From Candidatus Nomurabacteria bacterium (GTDB lineage: Bacteria > Patescibacteriota > Minisyncoccia > Phycocordibacterales > SBAW01), in contig CALQYT010000001.1 of assembly GCA_943348815.1 (NCBI GenBank), positions 92,994 through 156,993 on the forward strand: a DNA stretch of 64,000 nucleotides, read 5' to 3'. Below are positions 24,837 through 55,465 of the stretch, in pieces. Below the pieces are notes generated by a model. That model saw only the letters and a list, made by a program, of their open reading frames with translations. It was not told where the DNA came from and made no database searches. Made by a program: the position numbers and the translations under genes. Each line of letters opens with the position of its first letter. Position 1 is the stretch's first letter.

Positions 24837-25219
24837 TTTTTAAAACAACAATCCCCCAGCGGGGTTCGCTAGGGGATTTCCTCCCCCCGTTAGTAGTATG
24901 TTTGGAGGGTAGGGTGTTTGTCGGTGCATTCAGAACCGGTTAATCAAGGAGCTGGTGTGCCTCTTGGTTTTATTTTTGTCGAAGTTTGGGAGGTACCCGC
25001 CACGCCGACTAATAGATTTAGAATGCGACAAACTGACATGTCTGACTGCCCGAGGAACTGGTGTTTAAACCGATTCCTACAGGGTGAAGGAGTCGCGTCT
25101 AAACTATTTTTATCTAAAGTAATAGTACAACGCTAAAGGACAGTGTAAAGGACATGGGTGGGGATAAGCCTGCCTGCCGGCGGGCAGGTAAAGGACAGTA
25201 GGCAAAAAACCTAGTCTAA

Positions 25220-25258
25220 GCCGACGTTTTAGTCGGCTCCCCGACCAAAGCGTCGGGG
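25220..25258. repeat. GC-rich double-hairpin miniature repeat (GCCGAC-N6-GTCGGC + CCCCGAC-N6-GTCGGGG)
   Basis: Near-identical (inverted orientation) to 53152..53190 and similar to 54760..54801. Confidence 0.6.
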
Positions 25259-25263
25259 CGAAA

Positions 25264-26754
25264 TTAATCCACAAAGTATTTCTTTTGTATGTCCTTTATC
25301 TCCGCTTCTTCGGCAGCCTCCTTTTTTTCTTTACCCTCCTCCCCTATTGCTCGAAGGTCTTTGTCCGAAAGTTGGAGCAATTCTTTGGTCCGATTTTCCA
25401 AATACTCATCGGTATTTTTGGTCGGATCTTCCAAAACCTCTTCCAAAAGGGCGTGTAACACCCAACCGATACGAGGGCCGGCCTTCTCCCCCATCTGGAG
25501 AATACGCCCACCGTCTATCTTTAACATTCCTACGGAAATGGGGTCGCGCATAGCCTGCTCGATCATCGCTTGGTACTTGCGGAGGCGGAAAGGTTGCTCT
25601 TTGGGGCGCCCGGTACCGATGCGGTCGCAGATGCGGAGGTTAACGAGGTCCCAAATATGCTCTTTGCCCACGTTGGTGACGATCCGGCGCACCGCCGAGA
25701 GCGTTACGACGGCAGGGTCGCTAAAAAACATATGCCAGCGGACAAGGTTGGAGACTTTGTCGATAGTTTCGCGTGAAAACTTGAGGTCCTCGAGGTTTTT
25801 TTTGGTCATCCGGGCGCCTACCACATCGTGACCATGAAAGGTCCAATCTCTCTTTTCGTCCGACCAGCGGCGGGTCTTGGGTTTGCCGACATCGTGGAAG
25901 ACTGCAGCCAAGCGGACCAAGAGCGGCCAGTCTTTGTCGGCCGCATGTTGGAGCGTGCGAAGGTTATGCTCAAAAACATCGAAGCTGTGCGCTTGATTTT
26001 GTTCGACCCCTATCCCCTGCTCAAGTTCAGGGGCAATATACCGCAAAATACCTAATTTATGGCTTAAAATAAGGGCATTTTTAGGCTGCGTTGAGTTTAA
26101 AATCCGCACAAATTCATCGCGGATGCGCTCTTTAGAAATTTTTTCTAGCTGTGTTGCACAGTCACGCATGGCAGCCTCGGTGCGCGGCTCGATTTTGAAA
26201 TCTAGTTCTGCAGAAATGCGCACCGCGCGCAAAATACGAAGGGCGTCTTCGGCAAATCGCTCCTGCGGCTCCCCCACTGCCCGCACCCAACCTGCCGAAA
26301 TGTCTTTGATCCCGCCGTAGAGGTCGAGCAAGTCGCCACGCGAGGCACTATAGGCCATTGCATTGATCGTAAAGTCGCGACGCTTAAGGTCATCCTCAAT
26401 TTTTTGGCTAAAGACCACACTGTCGGGGCGGCGTGCGTCGCTGTACTTCCCTTCTAGACGGTACGGCGTCACTTCGATCACCGCCTTTGGCGGGACCCCG
26501 CCTTCGGCGGTGGCGACCACATCCTTAATTACTACCCCGACGGTGCCAAACTCATTGGTGTAATAGGTGTTCTCAAACAAGCCTTGAATTTGCTCTGGTG
26601 TGGCATTGGTCGTGACATCCCAGTCTTTGGGCGTGCGGTCAAGCAGCAAATCACGCACGCACCCGCCTACTACCCACGCTTCAAAACCCGCTTTTTCGAG
26701 CGTGCCGGTTACCCGGGTAACTTCTTGAGGTATTTGGCTGGGGCGCAACTGCAT
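25264..26754 (-). CDS. cca: CCA-adding tRNA nucleotidyltransferase with HD domain (start chosen at the internal Met so as not to overlap tRNA-Gly)
   Basis: Pol-beta NTase head (GGCVRDLLL...DWD), RRDFTINAMAY, HD domain (FHDVGKP...HG.). The ORF track's N-terminus overlaps a tRNA gene. Confidence 0.75.
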   Translation of the reverse strand: MQLRPSQIPQEVTRVTGTLEKAGFEAWVVGGCVRDLLLDRTPKDWDVTTNATPEQIQGLFENTYYTNEFGTVGVVIKDVVATAEGGVPPKAVIEVTPYRLEGKYSDARRPDSVVFSQKIEDDLKRRDFTINAMAYSASRGDLLDLYGGIKDISAGWVRAVGEPQERFAEDALRILRAVRISAELDFKIEPRTEAAMRDCATQLEKISKERIRDEFVRILNSTQPKNALILSHKLGILRYIAPELEQGIGVEQNQAHSFDVFEHNLRTLQHAADKDWPLLVRLAAVFHDVGKPKTRRWSDEKRDWTFHGHDVVGARMTKKNLEDLKFSRETIDKVSNLVRWHMFFSDPAVVTLSAVRRIVTNVGKEHIWDLVNLRICDRIGTGRPKEQPFRLRKYQAMIEQAMRDPISVGMLKIDGGRILQMGEKAGPRIGWVLHALLEEVLEDPTKNTDEYLENRTKELLQLSDKDLRAIGEEGKEKKEAAEEAEIKDIQKKYFVD

Positions 26755-26763
26755 TGCATTTTG

Positions 26764-26834
26764 TGCGGATAGGGAGAATCGAACTCCCGTCTCATCCTTG
26801 GCAAGGACGTGTTCTACCACTAAACCATATCCGC
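26764..26834 (-). tRNA. tRNA-Gly (anticodon GCC), no encoded CCA
   Basis: Reverse complement GCGGATATGGTTTAGTGGTAGAACACGTCCTTGCCAAGGATGAGACGGGAGTTCGATTCTCCCTATCCGCA folds as a cloverleaf. 7-bp acceptor stem, TTCGATT T-loop. Confidence 0.75.
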
Positions 26835-26901
26835 AGTTTCGAAATGAATATAGCATGCTTTTCTGTTAGGATTAAGCAGTCAGGCTAAAAGTGCAGATAA
26901 T

Positions 26902-38835: not shown

Positions 38836-39942
38836 TTAGTGATTGAGATAGTACTGGAGCGCGTTGCGCTCTTGGTTGCCCTCGCCTGCGTTAAAGACCG
38901 CTGCTTTGGCAGAAAGATCGCCAGCAAGGATTGCCGCTATGCCGCCCATGCCCCCCGCGGCAAGACTCGCGTTGATGTGTGTAATGGTGACTGCGCGCAG
39001 GTCGCGCTCGGAGGTTACGGTGCCCACCGTTGCCGTGGCGATTATGCCCGCAAGTGTGCCGTCGCTGAGGTGTACGGCCGCACCACCTGAGGAGCCGGCT
39101 TGCGACACGACCGTGCCGCCGATTGAAAAAAGGTCTAGACGATTGGCGCTATCGAACGAAAAGAATTGTGTTACGTACGCGACGGCCGAACTCTGGTACA
39201 AACTTTTTTCTATCAACTCGCCTGAAAGAAAACCTGCAGGGTAAGAGGCCAACAGCATCGATTCGCCGATCTTAACCGGGGTTGTATCGATGGTGAGCGC
39301 AGGGAAACTTGTAGGCAGAACACCTGCCGGGTCGGTCGTGGAGTTGATGAGGAGGAGCGAGTAGTCGTTTTCGCCGGTGCCCGTTGCTTGCTGCGCGATA
39401 ATTTCTTGCGCGTTAGCGTTGATCCAACTGGGTGGCAAGTACAGCAGGGTTGCGCGGTAGAGTCGTGCGGCGGGCGAGCCGACGCGGATCGTGCAATCGA
39501 CATTGTTGGCGGTTGGGTAATCGCGCAGCAAAAAATATTGCCCGATGTGTGCGTTGGTGAGTATGACGCCGCGGCTGTCGATGACGACACCACTCCCGGA
39601 GATGGAGCCCACGCCACCGCCTTGTGAAATGCAAAGAATATTAACCAGTGCTGCACGTGTCTCTTCGTTGACTTGCTCCTCCGACGCCTTGGTCGGAGCC
39701 CCGACCTCGTCCGACGAGCGTCGGGGTTGAGAAATGTTGGTGGATACAGAGATTGTGCCAGACTTTTGCCCCGCCCCCTGTGACTTCGCTACAGTGCTCA
39801 TTGCGATTACAGTAGTAGTTGCTTGTTGGGTGGGAGATGACGTTACTGCAACATGCGGTCCACCCAAAAAAGTAGAAATTACAACACCAAGCGCGATGAA
39901 AGCCCCGATTATTTTTTGGAGTAGCGTGGCGAGTAATTCCAT
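38836..39942 (-). CDS. membrane-anchored trypsin-like (S1 family) serine protease
   Basis: N-terminal TM helix; ILTNAHI (His), AGSSGGAAV (Ser) active-site-like motifs. Confidence 0.6.
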   Translation of the reverse strand: MELLATLLQKIIGAFIALGVVISTFLGGPHVAVTSSPTQQATTTVIAMSTVAKSQGAGQKSGTISVSTNISQPRRSSDEVGAPTKASEEQVNEETRAALVNILCISQGGGVGSISGSGVVIDSRGVILTNAHIGQYFLLRDYPTANNVDCTIRVGSPAARLYRATLLYLPPSWINANAQEIIAQQATGTGENDYSLLLINSTTDPAGVLPTSFPALTIDTTPVKIGESMLLASYPAGFLSGELIEKSLYQSSAVAYVTQFFSFDSANRLDLFSIGGTVVSQAGSSGGAAVHLSDGTLAGIIATATVGTVTSERDLRAVTITHINASLAAGGMGGIAAILAGDLSAKAAVFNAGEGNQERNALQYYLNH

Positions 39943-51615: not shown

Positions 51616-52362
51616 ATGCTGAAAGAGCTCCAAGATATTGGTCTCTCCGAAAAAGAAGCACGCGTCTATTTGGCGGCTCTAGAGTTGGGGAAGACTACGG
51701 CAGAAAAACTGGCCACCCATGCCAAGGTCAACCGCTCGACCACCTACGTGCAGCTGGAGTCTTTGATGAAAAAGGGCCTCATGAGCACCTACGAAGAGGC
51801 CAAAAAAACTTATTTTGCGCCCGAGTCGCCCGAACTTCTGCGCCGCTTGCTTGCCAAGCAGCGTGACGAGATGAGTACGAAAGAGCGCGACCTCTCTAGC
51901 CTCCTCCCCGCACTCCTGCAGCAGTACGATGGCGCGGGCGAGCGCCCCGTGGTGCGGTTTTATAGCGGTAAAGAGGGGATTACCGCTATGCGCGAGGATA
52001 CCCTTTCGCTAAATGGAGGAGACGAAATGCTCATTATTTATTCTTTAGATGCTTTGCAGGGTTTATATACTGAGAAGGAAACTGCAGATTATGTACGCCG
52101 CCGCATCGAAAAAGAAATACGAGTACGATGTGTTTACACGAGGAAAGAAGGTAAACTGCCACCCGATACCCTCCCTGCGCTTATGGAGCGGCGGTTTGTG
52201 CCAGAGAAAAAGATGCCTTTAACTACTGATTTTTTTGTACATAAGAATAAGGTTGCGATGATGGCTTTGCGTGGCCATCTCTTCGGTGTAGTGATTGAAA
52301 GTAAAGAAATAAGCGAAAGCTTCAGAAGCCTTTTTGAAATGATTTGGGCTGGAGGCGAATAG
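51616..52362 (+). CDS. TrmB-like winged-helix transcriptional regulator
   Basis: IGLSEKEARVYLAALELGKTTAEKLATHAKVNRSTTYVQLESLMKKGLM; tail SLFEMIWAGGE. Confidence 0.8.
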   Translation: MLKELQDIGLSEKEARVYLAALELGKTTAEKLATHAKVNRSTTYVQLESLMKKGLMSTYEEAKKTYFAPESPELLRRLLAKQRDEMSTKERDLSSLLPALLQQYDGAGERPVVRFYSGKEGITAMREDTLSLNGGDEMLIIYSLDALQGLYTEKETADYVRRRIEKEIRVRCVYTRKEGKLPPDTLPALMERRFVPEKKMPLTTDFFVHKNKVAMMALRGHLFGVVIESKEISESFRSLFEMIWAGGE

Positions 52363-52766
52363 CCATTTTCGTAAACGTAGAAGGGACGGCTTCGCGCATT
52401 TCGCCGCTAGGCCGTCCCCCTTGAGCACAAAACTCCCTATTTACCGCCAGCCTATTGTAAGGCGGTCAATGCTGAGAGCGAGTGCTCCTCGCGCTCAGCG
52501 TTACCAGCCCACGGCCGGCCTCATGGTGATAAGCATGGTTGTGCTCTCTGCTTTGTGGGGCGGCCACGTGGCCCACCCCGGGTTGCCGGGAGTACTCACG
52601 TACTGTCATCCCGGACAAGTTTGATTCTACTTTAGTTAAAGGAAATTGGCAAACAATTTGTGCACAAAACACCTGTTTGTTACTCTAAACCAACTATTTA
52701 ATCTGTCAAAAAAGGCTTTAAATAAAGCCATTTTGTACTTATCCACAGTGTTCATGTTAATATTCA

Positions 52767-52794
52767 TTGACAGTCCAGAGCGTTGGAATATAGT
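52767..52794 (+). promoter_or_regulatory. near-consensus sigma70-type promoter (TTGACA-16-TATAGT) inside an ORF-free region
   Basis: TTGACA at 52767..52772, TATAGT at 52789..52794. No protein gene downstream for about 400 nt; terminator at 53120..53151. Confidence 0.45.
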
Positions 52795-53014
52795 TACTGT
52801 GTCAAACGAAATTGACATCGTATGAAAAGCCAAAACACACGAGAACCGCCGTAACGAAAGAGGAAATGCCGAGGTTTTAAGATGCAGAAGATTAACAGAA
52901 TAAAAATTTCAAAACAATGAACAAAATAAACGGGTCGCCGCCAGGAGGTAGAGCAGAGAGGGGAGAGAAGGTAGAGAAAGACAAAGTGCAGCCGACAGAC
53001 TCAGGTGTTACCTT

Positions 53015-53102
53015 GCTCCCCGCCCCAAGTGCATAGGACTACGAGCCCGCTCTCGGATTTAGATAGACAAAACCGATACAGAGCGAGCACTTGGGGCGGG
53101 GA
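53015..53102. repeat. long imperfect hairpin (16-bp perfect outer stem TCCCCGCCCCAAGTGC / GCACTTGGGGCGGGGA)
   Basis: Arms at 53017..53032 and 53087..53102 are perfect reverse complements. Confidence 0.6.
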
Positions 53103-53119
53103 ATAGATCACAGCTGAGC

Positions 53120-53151
53120 GGAACGAACCGGAACACGGTTCGTTTTTGCTT
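53120..53151 (+). terminator. intrinsic terminator
   Basis: AACGAACCG-GAACAC-CGGTTCGTT followed by TTTGCTT. Confidence 0.6.
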
Positions 53152-53190
53152 CCCCGACGCTTTGGTCGGGGTTCCGACTAAAACGTCGGG
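53152..53190. repeat. GC-rich double-hairpin miniature repeat (CCCCGAC-GCTTTG-GTCGGGG + CCGAC-TAAAAC-GTCGG)
   Basis: Reverse-complement copy of 25220..25258. Confidence 0.6.
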
Positions 53191-53206
53191 ATATAATAAG
53201 TGAGTA

Positions 53207-54652
53207 ATGGAACCGAGTAACTGGTTACGCCGGGAGGTCATGAGTGATGACGAGCGACGACATGCGCTCGCGCACGAACTTGGGTTGCCCTTTGTGGCGC
53301 TCGGGCGCGACGACATTGCGCCCGAAGCAATGATGCTGATACCCGAGCCGCTCTCGCGCGAGCACAATGCGGTTGGCTATCAGGTAGGAGAAGGTGGTTT
53401 AGAGGTTGCACTGCTCGACCCGGCCGACTTGGACGCACTCTACTTTTTGCGCTCGCAATACCGCCTGCTGCCGCGGTTGGTCACGCGCGAGGATATGATC
53501 CGCGCTCTCCTGCACTACCAAAAACATCTCTACGAGGTATACGGCCGGCATCTGGAGCGTGGCGAGGGCCAAGGCGCGCTCGACACGCTGTTGCGCCACG
53601 CGCTGGTGAGCCACGCGAGCGACATACATTTGCAAACAACCGACAAAGGATTTTTGGTGCGGTACCGCATTAACGGCACACTCAAAGACGCGATGACGCT
53701 GCCGGCCGCTACGGGAGCGCGATTGGTTGATAAGTTGCGTACGCTTGCGCGCTTGCCTGCAAGCAGTTTGCCGCGCGAGGCGAGACTCCGCGTCGACTTG
53801 GGGCATGGCGAAGAAATAAATATTGGCGTCGCGAGCATGCCGACCATTGGCGGCGAAAAATTATTACTGAGCCTTACGCGCAACCGCGAGCGGCGCGGTT
53901 GGACGCTCCACTCGCTGGGGTTGCACGGCGAGGCGCTCGAGCGCGTGCACAAAACGCTACTGCATCGCCGCGGCGTCATTGCCATAACCGGCGCGCCGGC
54001 ATCGGGCAAAACTACGCTCTTGTATACGATGCTCGATTTGCTTAATACGCCCGAAATTTCGGTCGCGACGGTGGAGCAGTCGGTCGCAGAGATTTTACCG
54101 CGCGTCGCCCAAACCGATCTTGCGGTAACAGGCCTTAGTGTTGGTGCGGCATTGCGCGCGGCACTACGCACCGACCCAGATGCGGTGCTCCTTGATGAGC
54201 TCGGCGACTCTAACAGCGCGGCGGTTGCCGGTGCAGCGGCGCTGCGCGGACTTTTGATTGTTGCCACCACGACGCAAGCAGAACTTCTGCCGCAAGCGAC
54301 GTTTACGGTCCGCACGGCGCTGTTGCGCAAACTTTGCGACAAAAAGTTTTTGCAAAAATCAAAACTCACTCGAGCCGAGGCCGACACGCTTGAAGATGCC
54401 GGTGCAAACTTTGCCAACGTACTTGCGGCACTCAAAGAAGAAGATAAGGTAGCCAAAGACACCGCATGGAAGGATATTACGTTTGCCCGTGCAAGCGGCT
54501 GCAGCGAGTGCGATGGCGGGTACCAAGGGCTGCTTGGCGTGCAAGAGGTTGCGGCGCAAGAGGGGGTGGTTGGGCTCAATGTGCTCGAAGATGCACTCTA
54601 TAAGGCGGCGCAAGGGCTAACTTCGATAGAAGAGGTGCTTGCGCTCGTATAG
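53207..54652 (+). CDS. GspE/PilB-family secretion ATPase homolog, GC-rich, with a degenerate His box
   Basis: T2SSE_N-like N-terminus; Walker A GAPASGKTT; Asp box DPDAVLLDELGD; His-box position reads LLIVATTTQ; C-terminal GCSECDGGYQG tetracysteine-like motif. Confidence 0.6.
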   Translation: MEPSNWLRREVMSDDERRHALAHELGLPFVALGRDDIAPEAMMLIPEPLSREHNAVGYQVGEGGLEVALLDPADLDALYFLRSQYRLLPRLVTREDMIRALLHYQKHLYEVYGRHLERGEGQGALDTLLRHALVSHASDIHLQTTDKGFLVRYRINGTLKDAMTLPAATGARLVDKLRTLARLPASSLPREARLRVDLGHGEEINIGVASMPTIGGEKLLLSLTRNRERRGWTLHSLGLHGEALERVHKTLLHRRGVIAITGAPASGKTTLLYTMLDLLNTPEISVATVEQSVAEILPRVAQTDLAVTGLSVGAALRAALRTDPDAVLLDELGDSNSAAVAGAAALRGLLIVATTTQAELLPQATFTVRTALLRKLCDKKFLQKSKLTRAEADTLEDAGANFANVLAALKEEDKVAKDTAWKDITFARASGCSECDGGYQGLLGVQEVAAQEGVVGLNVLEDALYKAAQGLTSIEEVLALV

Positions 54653-54661
54653 AGTGCTATA

Positions 54662-55465
54662 TTGGCATCAATGAAAAAGCTCGTCGTCGCCAACTGGAAG
54701 ATGTATGTCGAGGACAAGGCGAGTGCGAGCCGCTGGCTCAGCAAAGTTTCGCGGGCTAACCCCGACGCCAAAGGGTCGGGGCCCCGACCGAAGCGTCGGG
54801 GAAAACTAAATATAGAGGTGTGGGTGGCAGCGCCTGTGGTGTTTATTAAAAAGAGTTCGCTACCGATGGGCGCGCAAACCGTTTCGCAATTTGAAAATGG
54901 TGCGCATACGGGCGAGCTAAGCGCTGCCGTACTTAAGGAAGCGGGCGCAAAATTTGCAATAGTTGGACATTCCGAGCGCCGTGCTATGGGCGAAAATAAT
55001 GATGCGGTGCATGCACAGCTGGTGCAAGCCACACACGCGGGACTAACCCCATTACTTTGTGTGGGCGAAGGTGAGCGCACGGCAGAGGGCGCGCATTTTA
55101 CCTTTATAGAAGAGCAGCTAACCTCGGCGCTACGCGGTATGCAGTCGATTGTCGAAAAGTTGGTGGTAGCCTACGAGCCGGTCTGGGCGATAGGTAAAAG
55201 TGCGAGCGAGGCAATGAAGCCACAGGAGGTTGAAGAGACGGTAATTTTTATCCGCAAAGTATTGAGTGATGTGCTTGGGCGCGAGCCGGCACGCAAAGTA
55301 CGTGTACTCTACGGCGGTTCGGTCGAGGGAGAAAACGCACATACCCTTTTGCACGATGGCGGGGTTAATGGATTTTTGGTTGGTCACGCGAGCGCGACAC
55401 CCGAGTCATTTATAGAAATATTAAAAGAAACCGGCCGCCTTTCAAAGGACGTTAAGGCGGCATGA
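54662..55465 (+). CDS. tpiA: triosephosphate isomerase
   Basis: ANWKM, IVGHSERR, YEPVWAIG, GGSV motifs. Carries an in-frame 42-nt GC hairpin repeat at 54760..54801. Confidence 0.85.
   Translation: MASMKKLVVANWKMYVEDKASASRWLSKVSRANPDAKGSGPRPKRRGKLNIEVWVAAPVVFIKKSSLPMGAQTVSQFENGAHTGELSAAVLKEAGAKFAIVGHSERRAMGENNDAVHAQLVQATHAGLTPLLCVGEGERTAEGAHFTFIEEQLTSALRGMQSIVEKLVVAYEPVWAIGKSASEAMKPQEVEETVIFIRKVLSDVLGREPARKVRVLYGGSVEGENAHTLLHDGGVNGFLVGHASATPESFIEILKETGRLSKDVKAA
54760..54801. repeat. GC-rich double-hairpin repeat copy embedded in-frame in tpiA (encodes NPDAKGSGPRPKRRG)
   Basis: CCCCGAC-GCCAAAG-GGTCGGGG-CCCCGAC-CGAAGC-GTCGGGG. Same family as the 25220 and 53152 repeats. Confidence 0.55.

Follow-up and report, generated by a model that had tools for sequence, protein, structure and literature searches.

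Small palindromic repeats that occur both between and inside genes have been described from a few bacterial and organellar systems. In the following, these are compared with a double-hairpin element found in a 64,000-nucleotide stretch of DNA (below called the window) from a Candidatus Nomurabacteria bacterium of the candidate phyla radiation (CPR), corresponding to positions 92,994 to 156,993 of contig CALQYT010000001.1 in assembly GCA_943348815.1. One copy of the element lies in-frame within tpiA, the gene encoding triosephosphate isomerase.

When it comes to behavior, the nearest bacterial analogue would seem to be the Rickettsia palindromic elements (RPE), reportedly described by Ogata et al. 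in 2000. According to the account in PMC10969869, RPE are about 100-150 bp long, make up about ten families, are confined to Rickettsia, and are found in-frame in dozens of housekeeping genes. As far as that account goes, RPE share with the present element that a non-coding palindromic repeat is found both between genes and in-frame within unrelated housekeeping genes of a host-dependent bacterium with a reduced genome, that the extra peptide is translated at positions compatible with the protein fold, and that a mobilizing enzyme is not known. The element differs from RPE, as portrayed there, in being 40-48 nt long with a fixed two-hairpin layout and in occurring across a radiation of phyla, and the two display no sequence similarity.

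In anatomy the closest counterparts appear to be the mitochondrial double-hairpin elements (DHE), said to have been described by Paquin et al. in 2000, and the comparable GC clusters of yeast mitochondria. Such elements are very small and GC-rich, reside in A/T-richer genomes, and occupy spacers or, in some cases, in-frame positions within coding sequence. Their mobility has been deduced from presence/absence, and we know of no dedicated enzyme. Like the present element they combine two adjacent hairpins with sites in both spacers and coding sequence. However, DHE (mentioned, e.g., in PMC5910586 and PMC4478555) are organellar and unrelated in sequence, while the element resides on bacterial chromosomes and has a core that is conserved far deeper.

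Repetitive extragenic palindromic (REP) sequences and their inverted doublets (REPIN) are also short, GC-rich, dispersed palindromes whose stem is conserved and whose loop varies, and they too lack target-site duplications, as expected for single-strand HUH transposition. The element differs from them in that it has no GTAG/GTGG foot and that no REP-associated tyrosine transposase (RAYT) was detected in the sampled DNA. Around a third of the listed copies are intragenic, while REPs by definition are extragenic, and in contrast to REPINs the two hairpins abut without a spacer and the doublet does not form one long hairpin. Coxiella QMITE, ERIC, and BOX are MITEs, transposable elements of the miniature inverted-repeat type, for which in-frame fusions with open reading frames (ORFs) have been described (PMC5896051, PMC10969869). 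These are likewise small non-autonomous repeats that fuse with host ORFs, but MITEs carry terminal inverted repeats related to insertion sequences as well as target-site duplications. An earlier annotation of the window made from its letters alone, the sequence-only reading, had called the element REP/MITE-like; this description fits the behavior, but not the strict definition of either a MITE, given the lack of target-site duplication, or a REP/RAYT system, given the lack of GTAG and of a detected RAYT. Compared to CRISPR and tandem interspersed guide RNA (TIGR) loci as defined in PMC12045711, the element occurs as isolated doublets with no repeat-spacer array in the window. The kind of element is thus known, but the family is new. 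The literature searched holds no description of it in CPR, although subscription journals were mostly uncovered and this is absence of evidence only.

Copies of the Element in the Window

The window holds four copies, two of them intergenic (A and B) and two in-frame within genes (C and D). With a probability of about 0.78 these sites belong to a non-autonomous, REP/REPIN-like palindromic repeat family distributed across CPR, whose genic copies survive in tolerant loops as long as they preserve the reading frame. The copies are as follows, with scores from the covariance model R1:

25219-25258, no strand assigned: copy A, 40 nt, intergenic (59.8 bits, E = 3e-15)
39679-39726, minus strand: copy D, 48 nt, in-frame in a gene for a trypsin-like protease (50.3 bits, E = 1.5e-12)
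53152-53191, no strand assigned: copy B, 40 nt, intergenic (59.1 bits, E = 5e-15)
54760-54801, plus strand: copy C, 42 nt (14 codons), in-frame in tpiA (61.5 bits, E = 1e-15)

R1 was trained on copies from other genomes together with A, B, and C, while D was left out. In the 64-kb window the model finds exactly these four loci, the next match having E = 0.2. The pattern CCCGAC-N4-10-GTCGGG matches four times where 0.02 matches are expected, and the looser CCGAC-N4-10-GTCGG, which exposed copy D, eight times where 0.5 are expected; neither count was reached in any of 100 shuffles. The sequence-only reading had listed three copies, A, B, and C, and all of these are real and lie where it had placed them, but it had missed D. 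It had also allowed for the motif being too common to be meaningful, and the figure of four matches against 0.02 shows that it is not frequent by chance. No Rfam family matches the element: a search of the whole window at gathering scores gave four tRNAs only, and a permissive search around copy B (52350-53260) gave nothing credible at E <= 5.

Copy A consists of AGCCGAC-GTTTTA-GTCGGCT (25219-25238) directly followed by CCCCGAC-CAAAGC-GTCGGGG (25239-25258), and is predicted to fold into two hairpins (-26 kcal/mol, z = -4.4). It is found 5 nt past the stop codon of a gene encoding a CCA-adding enzyme (25264-26856, minus strand), in a convergent gene pair. Copy B (CCCCGAC-GCTTTG-GTCGGGG plus TTCCGAC-TAAAAC-GTCGGGA) is located directly 3' of a terminator-like hairpin with a T-run, has TATAAT directly after it, and lies upstream of a gene for a pilB/gspE-like ATPase. 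A and the reverse complement of B are identical at 36 of 40 positions, confirming the near-exact inverse relationship noted earlier, and all four mismatches fall in the outer stem pairs of a single hairpin. Copy C is composed of CCCCGAC-GCCAAAGG-GTCGGGG and then CCCCGAC-CGAAGC-GTCGGGG; its 8-nt loop variant (GCCAAAGG or CCYTTGGC) is seen again at five other loci (L013, L034, L078, L095, and L118). On the gene strand, copy D reads CCCCGAC, a 14-nt loop with an inner stem, and GTCGGGG, followed by CTCCGAC-CAAGGC-GTCGGAG, and it encodes PRRSSDEVGAPTKASE. Within the window, the copies that lie in genes are thus 42 and 48 nt long, and both intergenic ones 40 nt.

Structure of the Element

Further copies were collected from the GTDB representatives, which comprise a single genome for each species, using a generic pattern in which four bases separate two CCGAC-N6-8-GTCGG hairpins. 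This yielded at least 120 loci, and a set of 87 copies was drawn from the listed matches. The unit consists of two abutting hairpins, each of the form NN-CCGAC-loop-GTCGG-N'N', with a 7-bp stem and a loop of 6-8 nt, and hardly anything else. In each stem, two variable but mutually complementary outer pairs are joined to the fixed core CCGAC/GTCGG. Among 80 distinct copies, on which all structure statistics are based, 99.1% of the cells are paired in the two-hairpin structure. The four free pairs, i.e., the outer two of each stem, have undergone 110 double-sided changes, compared to 25.7 in shuffles, and none of 500 shuffles reached the observed number. The covariation signal is abolished when the partner columns are slid. 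A single long hairpin, where arm 1 pairs with arm 2, is favored by ViennaRNA for copies B and C folded individually. This fold is rejected because the free positions then pair worse than in shuffles across the family.

Only four outer-pair variants are common (CC/GG, CT/AG, TC/GA, and AG/CT), and these combine freely between both hairpins. The first loop is GCTTCG, GCTTTG, GTTTTA, GTTTCA, or GATTCT, the general type being G-YTTY-G/A, and the second loop is of the complementary type C/T-RAAR-C (CGAAGC, CAAAGC, TAAAAC, or AGAATC). The two hairpins are therefore usually inverted versions of each other, as in a REP doublet. Read from its sequence, the consensus lacks stop codons in all six frames.

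The left flank is biased toward T-Y-A-R and the right flank toward T-T-G/A, and there is no GTAG tetranucleotide. In 63 of 71 copies no direct repeat that could represent a target-site duplication is found at the junctions; three A/T-rich matches of 8-9 nt at the junctions are probably compositional. Nearby duplications of flanking sequence are, however, in excess (8 of 68 copies, 1.8 expected).

Copies within Genes

A copy was regarded as genic when the ORF around it comprised 170 residues or more and extended for 25 residues or more to either side of the copy. By this definition 24 of the 87 listed copies are genic, and a second gene-calling heuristic gives 28. Judged from the translations, the host genes encode EF-G (L063), uL3 (L124), SecA (L081), UvrB (L078), NusA (L068), TsaD (L035), KsgA (L066), RsmH (L064), Pth (L013), a class I aminoacyl-tRNA synthetase (L121), and a PilB-type ATPase (L080). 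For EF-G and uL3, alignments with proteins of solved structure confirm the assignment, and the element falls in a gap of 20 residues in EF-G (against the Thermus thermophilus protein) and of eight residues in uL3.

The genic copies are read in all three frames, which gives recurrent predicted peptides such as NPDAK(G/R)SGPRPKRRGK, (T/A)PTxxVGxPTxSVG, and LRRxxVGAPTExS. The first of these, nearly the same peptide as in TpiA of the window, is encoded by the same DNA element in KsgA (L066), in RsmH (L064), and also at L095 and L018. Since the element is read in all three frames and the peptides recur, the common denominator is the DNA and not a protein motif.

The genic copies also differ in length from the others. 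While 18 of the 24 are 42 nt long, this length is found for only 15 of the 63 non-genic copies (Fisher p = 1.8e-5), which mainly are 40 nt (35/63). This bias is the outcome expected from frame selection acting on a translated insert, and it argues against removal at the RNA level. As far as can be judged from sequence, it indicates that the element is translated. The earlier proposal that the repeat can reside in coding sequence without breaking the frame thus holds for copies C and D, and it agrees with the enrichment of 42-nt copies in genes. Of the intergenic copies, 31 are flanked by tandem genes, 8 by convergent genes, and 7 by divergent genes, with no preference for the 3'-ends of genes. 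At L006, L054, and L085 the element produces spurious ORFs in the wrong frame.

Inserts in TpiA, a Protease, and EF-G

The two genes in the window that contain copies of the element are:

54671-55465, plus strand: tpiA, 264 aa; Pfam TIM, E = 1.4e-62, profile positions 1-244 of 245
38836-39942, minus strand: gene for a trypsin-like serine protease, 368 aa; Pfam Trypsin_2 at residues 116-300

Copy C encodes residues N30-G44 of TpiA (NPDAKGSGPRPKRRG). An alignment shows these residues to be missing from 28 of 29 orthologues, the closest of which are only 61-64% identical; TpiA and the proteins encoded next to it match metagenome-assembled Patescibacteria resembling Kaiserbacteria or Paceibacterota. 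The insert is hence lineage-specific, as had been anticipated, and no orthologue was found that has the same residues but lacks the repeat signature. An identical TpiA, insert included, is encoded in four independent assemblies from different runs (L001-L004), indicating that it is not an assembly artefact. The window's TpiA peptide furthermore recurs almost exactly in KsgA of another genome.

An AlphaFold model of TpiA (mean pLDDT 88.9) displays a normal TIM barrel where residues 30-47 form a coil (pLDDT around 59) flanked by helix 16-29 and strand 48-54, placing the insert in the α1-β2 loop. In TIM barrels this loop is found on the face opposite the catalytic β-α loops. Based on the model, copy C probably forms a basic, Gly/Pro-rich, disordered loop of 14-15 residues on the face opposite the catalytic loops. 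The sequence-only reading had put about 14 extra residues directly after the NWKM strand. The 14 codons are as it stated, but the insert follows helix 1; on the question it raised of surface exposure, the model shows a low-confidence surface coil. The alignment of TpiA to structures in PDB begins downstream of the insert. The orthologue P0015, from a genome with matching gene order, has a different extra segment of seven residues at the same position, and inspection of the DNA shows that this is encoded by an unrelated small palindrome, CGTAGGCCTACG (L125:3085-3110). The extra segment SSSSDSAQDK in the TpiA of P0096 was also considered as a copy of the element, but its DNA is not palindromic and it is unrelated.

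In the protease, copy D is found in the linker joining an N-terminal hydrophobic membrane helix to the protease domain, and the gene as predicted would thus encode a membrane-anchored protease with a lengthened linker. A homologous protease from a groundwater metagenome (P0274/L133) has its own, independent 42-nt copy of the element in the linker. Further short GC-rich segments seem to occupy the same tolerant parts of proteins in related genomes. The N-terminal linkers of related proteases (P0242-P0290) repeatedly contain peptides like TNGLVEAEPTRGP and EQKSGL…PRTFGQ, their palindromic coding being known from back-translation only. Together with the palindrome of P0015, this suggests that several distinct palindromic repeat families exist in genes of Paceibacteria.

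The gain of a copy is most easily followed in EF-G. Among the best 120 homologues of the L063 protein (83-95% identity), only two contain the insert, L063 itself and P0129. Relatives that are 94-95% identical to L063 have an ordinary 14-residue loop and no element. When L063 is compared to the 95% identical, empty gene of L131, the 40-nt element is found exactly between CTAAA and AAATAT, and this filled site shows no target duplication relative to the empty one.

The second EF-G with an insert, P0129 (726 aa), is known from its protein sequence alone (…LNPDAASPVGTPTKASGKY…). It is very probably the EF-G of the window organism itself, in which case it represents a fifth copy, outside the window. 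P0129 is 88% identical to L063 and has its copy at the same site, while closer relatives of L063 are empty; either two independent insertions have occurred at one site, or the element has been transferred by recombination.

Distribution across CPR

About 80 of the listed loci are found on low- to mid-GC contigs, mostly labeled as CPR. The CPR groups among the listed matches are Saccharibacteria, Taylor-, Nomura-, Adler-, Yanofsky-, Doudna-, Zambryski-, Brenner-, and Kaiserbacteria, Paceibacterota, and Minisyncoccia; as with the copy set, this is a sample and not a census. The CPR loci share features that were not required by the search, namely 7-bp stems, abutting hairpins, and the loop motifs, while matches in high-GC actinomycetes and others resemble chance or unrelated repeats. 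Since CPR genomes make up a small part of the scanned collection, the family is strongly CPR-associated, and it spans the radiation instead of being restricted to one lineage. R1 finds about 105 loci in 630 kb of CPR DNA, including copies missed by the strict pattern. The same pattern matched five times in the viral contigs of IMG/VR, and none of these matches has the stems and loops of the family; the element is accordingly not phage-borne in IMG/VR.

At least 14 copies located between genes are present on the contigs sampled from the Taylorbacteria genome MHSK01. The copies found there (L024, L042, L051, L055, L072, L077, L089, L092, L093, L096, and L123) are near-identical, with loops GCTTCG/CGAAGC, and are embedded in longer shared flanks rich in TTCGTAT/ATACGA repeats, which means that the repeat unit in this genome is larger and oriented. 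Textbook copies of the CPR element are also seen in bins assigned to uncultured Gammaproteobacteria (L083, L114, and L116) and Bacteriovoracaceae (L046), and these may be mis-binned CPR contigs. A Bacteroidetes metagenome-assembled genome (MAG) contains double hairpins with the CCGAC core and outer pairs TG/CA (L032:2899-2944 and L052:1067-1112), whose loops ACTTTG/CGAAGT and ACTACG/CGTAGT are mutually complementary; this appears to be a separate family outside CPR. In a Thermoanaerobaculia MAG (L115:5500-5775), CCGACGC(A/G)GTGTGTCGGGGCT forms a tandem array with a 21-nt period within an ORF of 925 residues. This array is an in-frame protein repeat of seven residues and is unrelated to the dispersed element.

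Association with tRNA D-loops

Around 10 of the approximately 86 listed copies are found inside the D-loop of a tRNA gene fragment (…AGCTCAG, element, TTGGTAGAGC…). These loci are:

L033:6960-7085, L083:180-300, L107:1875-2010, L108:3385-3480, L110:7050-7130, L116:190-330, L056:1145-1215, L087:1440-1600, L114:2495-2610, and L021:2960-3080

As D-loops form a tiny fraction of a genome, they are a strong hot spot for the element. Most of the interrupted fragments are partial or decayed duplicates of the 5' part of a same-type tRNA gene that is found intact 5-70 nt downstream, and ARAGORN does not call the interrupted copies as tRNAs even when the element is removed in silico.

Possible Mechanism and Alternative Explanations

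If the family is a non-autonomous repeat as proposed, A/T-rich sites would receive new copies, with no regular duplication of the target, probably by transposition or some form of copy-in. Because the consensus is free of stop codons in all six frames, a copy landing in a gene would be read through. Selection would then retain only those copies that preserve the frame, i.e., copies of 42 or 48 nt, or 40-nt copies offset by nearby indels, and these would be confined to tolerant segments such as surface loops and linkers. The resulting protein inserts are presumably neutral passengers. Two candidate mobilizers may be considered, a single-strand, hairpin-recognizing enzyme of the HUH/Y1 type, or transposase-free template switching at a stalled hairpin. 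By analogy with IS200/IS605 and REP/RAYT, the combination of a hairpin substrate, a short conserved flank, and no target duplication would be compatible with single-strand HUH transposition. The remodeling seen at the EF-G site (see below) and the excess of flank duplications fit enzyme-free template switching equally well.

Several points count against this interpretation. The EF-G site is not a clean insertion, since 25 nt have been lost and 9 nt gained just upstream of the element; the net change is therefore 24 nt and the frame is restored. No presence/absence polymorphism is seen within the population, all four assemblies having the tpiA insert. Given that just four variants of the outer pairs are common, a few hairpin "alleles" or master copies, instead of ongoing compensatory change, may lie behind the covariation. 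Searches by tblastn with approximate query sequences for IS200 TnpA and Escherichia coli RayT found nothing at E <= 1 in the window and about 0.9 Mb of loci; this is a weak negative, since only genome fragments were searched and distant homologues could escape. The taxonomic distribution is moreover drawn from a sample of the matches. Finally, very deeply separated CPR lineages have the 5-bp core in common, which is not usual for a repeat that is purely selfish and hints at a conserved recognizing factor or a host function.

The last point can be developed into an extended version of the proposal, which is speculative and has the odds clearly against it. The element would then be the substrate of a CPR-wide machinery that recognizes the CCGAC hairpin pair, has the tRNA D-loop (between CAG and TTGG) as its preferred target, remodels tRNA loci, and writes short loops that are basic or rich in Pro, Thr, and Gly into essential proteins. 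Alternatively, the element would spread by enzyme-free template switching at the hairpins, which would explain the variable flank duplications. A host function for the double hairpin is improbable. It could be a CPR-conserved site for binding or processing by a protein, such as an RNA hairpin for a ribonuclease or an RNA chaperone, or a DNA site for a recombination or uptake factor. Copies would then be retained for this function, with the genic ones serving as regulators or processing sites. The invariant CCGAC/GTCGG core, the loop motifs common to very distant CPR classes, and the stem pairing kept in 99% of the cells would all suit such a role, as would the strong link to D-loop sequences and the spacing of the four half-sites, which by their positions in the sequence are 11, 9, and 11 nt apart, or approximately one helical turn. 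However, the copies are non-orthologous and are found in unrelated genes in all three frames, the element is missing from EF-G relatives that are 94-95% identical, and the copies are not preferentially positioned with respect to gene ends. The density of the element is low and variable, from four per 64 kb in the window to many more in one Taylorbacteria genome, and no Rfam family matches. The symmetric variation of the outer pairs also suits base pairing better than a fixed protein-DNA contact.

That the copies are bidirectional intrinsic terminators, with the intragenic ones being chance look-alikes or attenuators, is very unlikely. In its favor, the hairpins combine a high GC content with stability, T is overrepresented at the first two flanking positions, and copy A is found 5 nt past a stop codon between convergent genes. 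On the other hand, the hairpins are not followed by a T-run, the flank consensus being T-T-G/A-A, they are absent from the output of the terminator scan, and copy B is itself preceded by a separate, canonical terminator-like hairpin that has a T-run. Only eight of the 46 classifiable intergenic copies are convergent while seven are divergent, and a third of the copies are within essential genes where termination would be harmful. Even less can be said for the TpiA segment being an ordinary lineage-specific protein loop with a coincidental likeness to the intergenic hairpins. The α1-β2 loop does vary in length, as the seven-residue segment of P0015 shows, but the 42 nt of copy C score 61.5 bits (E = 1e-15) against the repeat model, and nearly the same peptide is encoded by the same DNA element in the unrelated KsgA and RsmH. 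The absence of the segment from 28 of 29 orthologues, and its presence in four assemblies, which argues against an artefact, likewise speak against this explanation. The least probable origin is a fragmented RNA-guide array of the CRISPR or TIGR type. TIGR systems do occur in CPR, some of them with palindromic stem-loop units (PMC12045711). The doublets are nevertheless scattered and isolated, and do not form tandem arrays of 5-15 units beside a tas gene encoding a Nop-domain protein; no tandem array is found in the window, and the loops measure 6-8 nt, with neither 9-nt spacers nor box C/D motifs being present.

Neighboring Features

Between a TrmB-like gene and copy B there is a stretch of approximately 790 nt without a credible ORF (52363-53150). 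It contains a near-consensus promoter-like site, TTGACA-16-TATAGT (52767-52794, plus strand), a long internal stem formed by approximately 53018-53035 and 53089-53105, and a terminator-like hairpin with a T-run at around 53125-53147, which suggests that a non-coding RNA of about 340 nt is encoded here. The longest ORF of the CCA-adding enzyme (25264-26856, minus strand) overruns a tRNA-Gly(gcc) gene at 26763-26834 on the same strand, and the true start is probably an internal Met (MQLRPSQ…).

Significance

What is noteworthy about this family is the very small, fixed two-hairpin form, the CPR-wide spread, and the frequent frame-preserving residence in essential genes. The streamlined CPR genomes, which are among the smallest, tolerate a repeat that adds 14-16 residues to proteins like EF-G, SecA, uL3, and TpiA. 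This is a second, independent bacterial case of the phenomenon known from RPE, with a smaller element and a phylogenetically much wider range, and the rules for insertion tolerance in proteins could be studied across thousands of genomes. The element accounts for odd lineage-specific loops in CPR proteins. It may also break short-read assemblies, and its near-exclusive occurrence in CPR could be used to flag mis-binned contigs. The conserved core and the link to tRNA D-loops make the mobilizing mechanism a concrete and testable problem.

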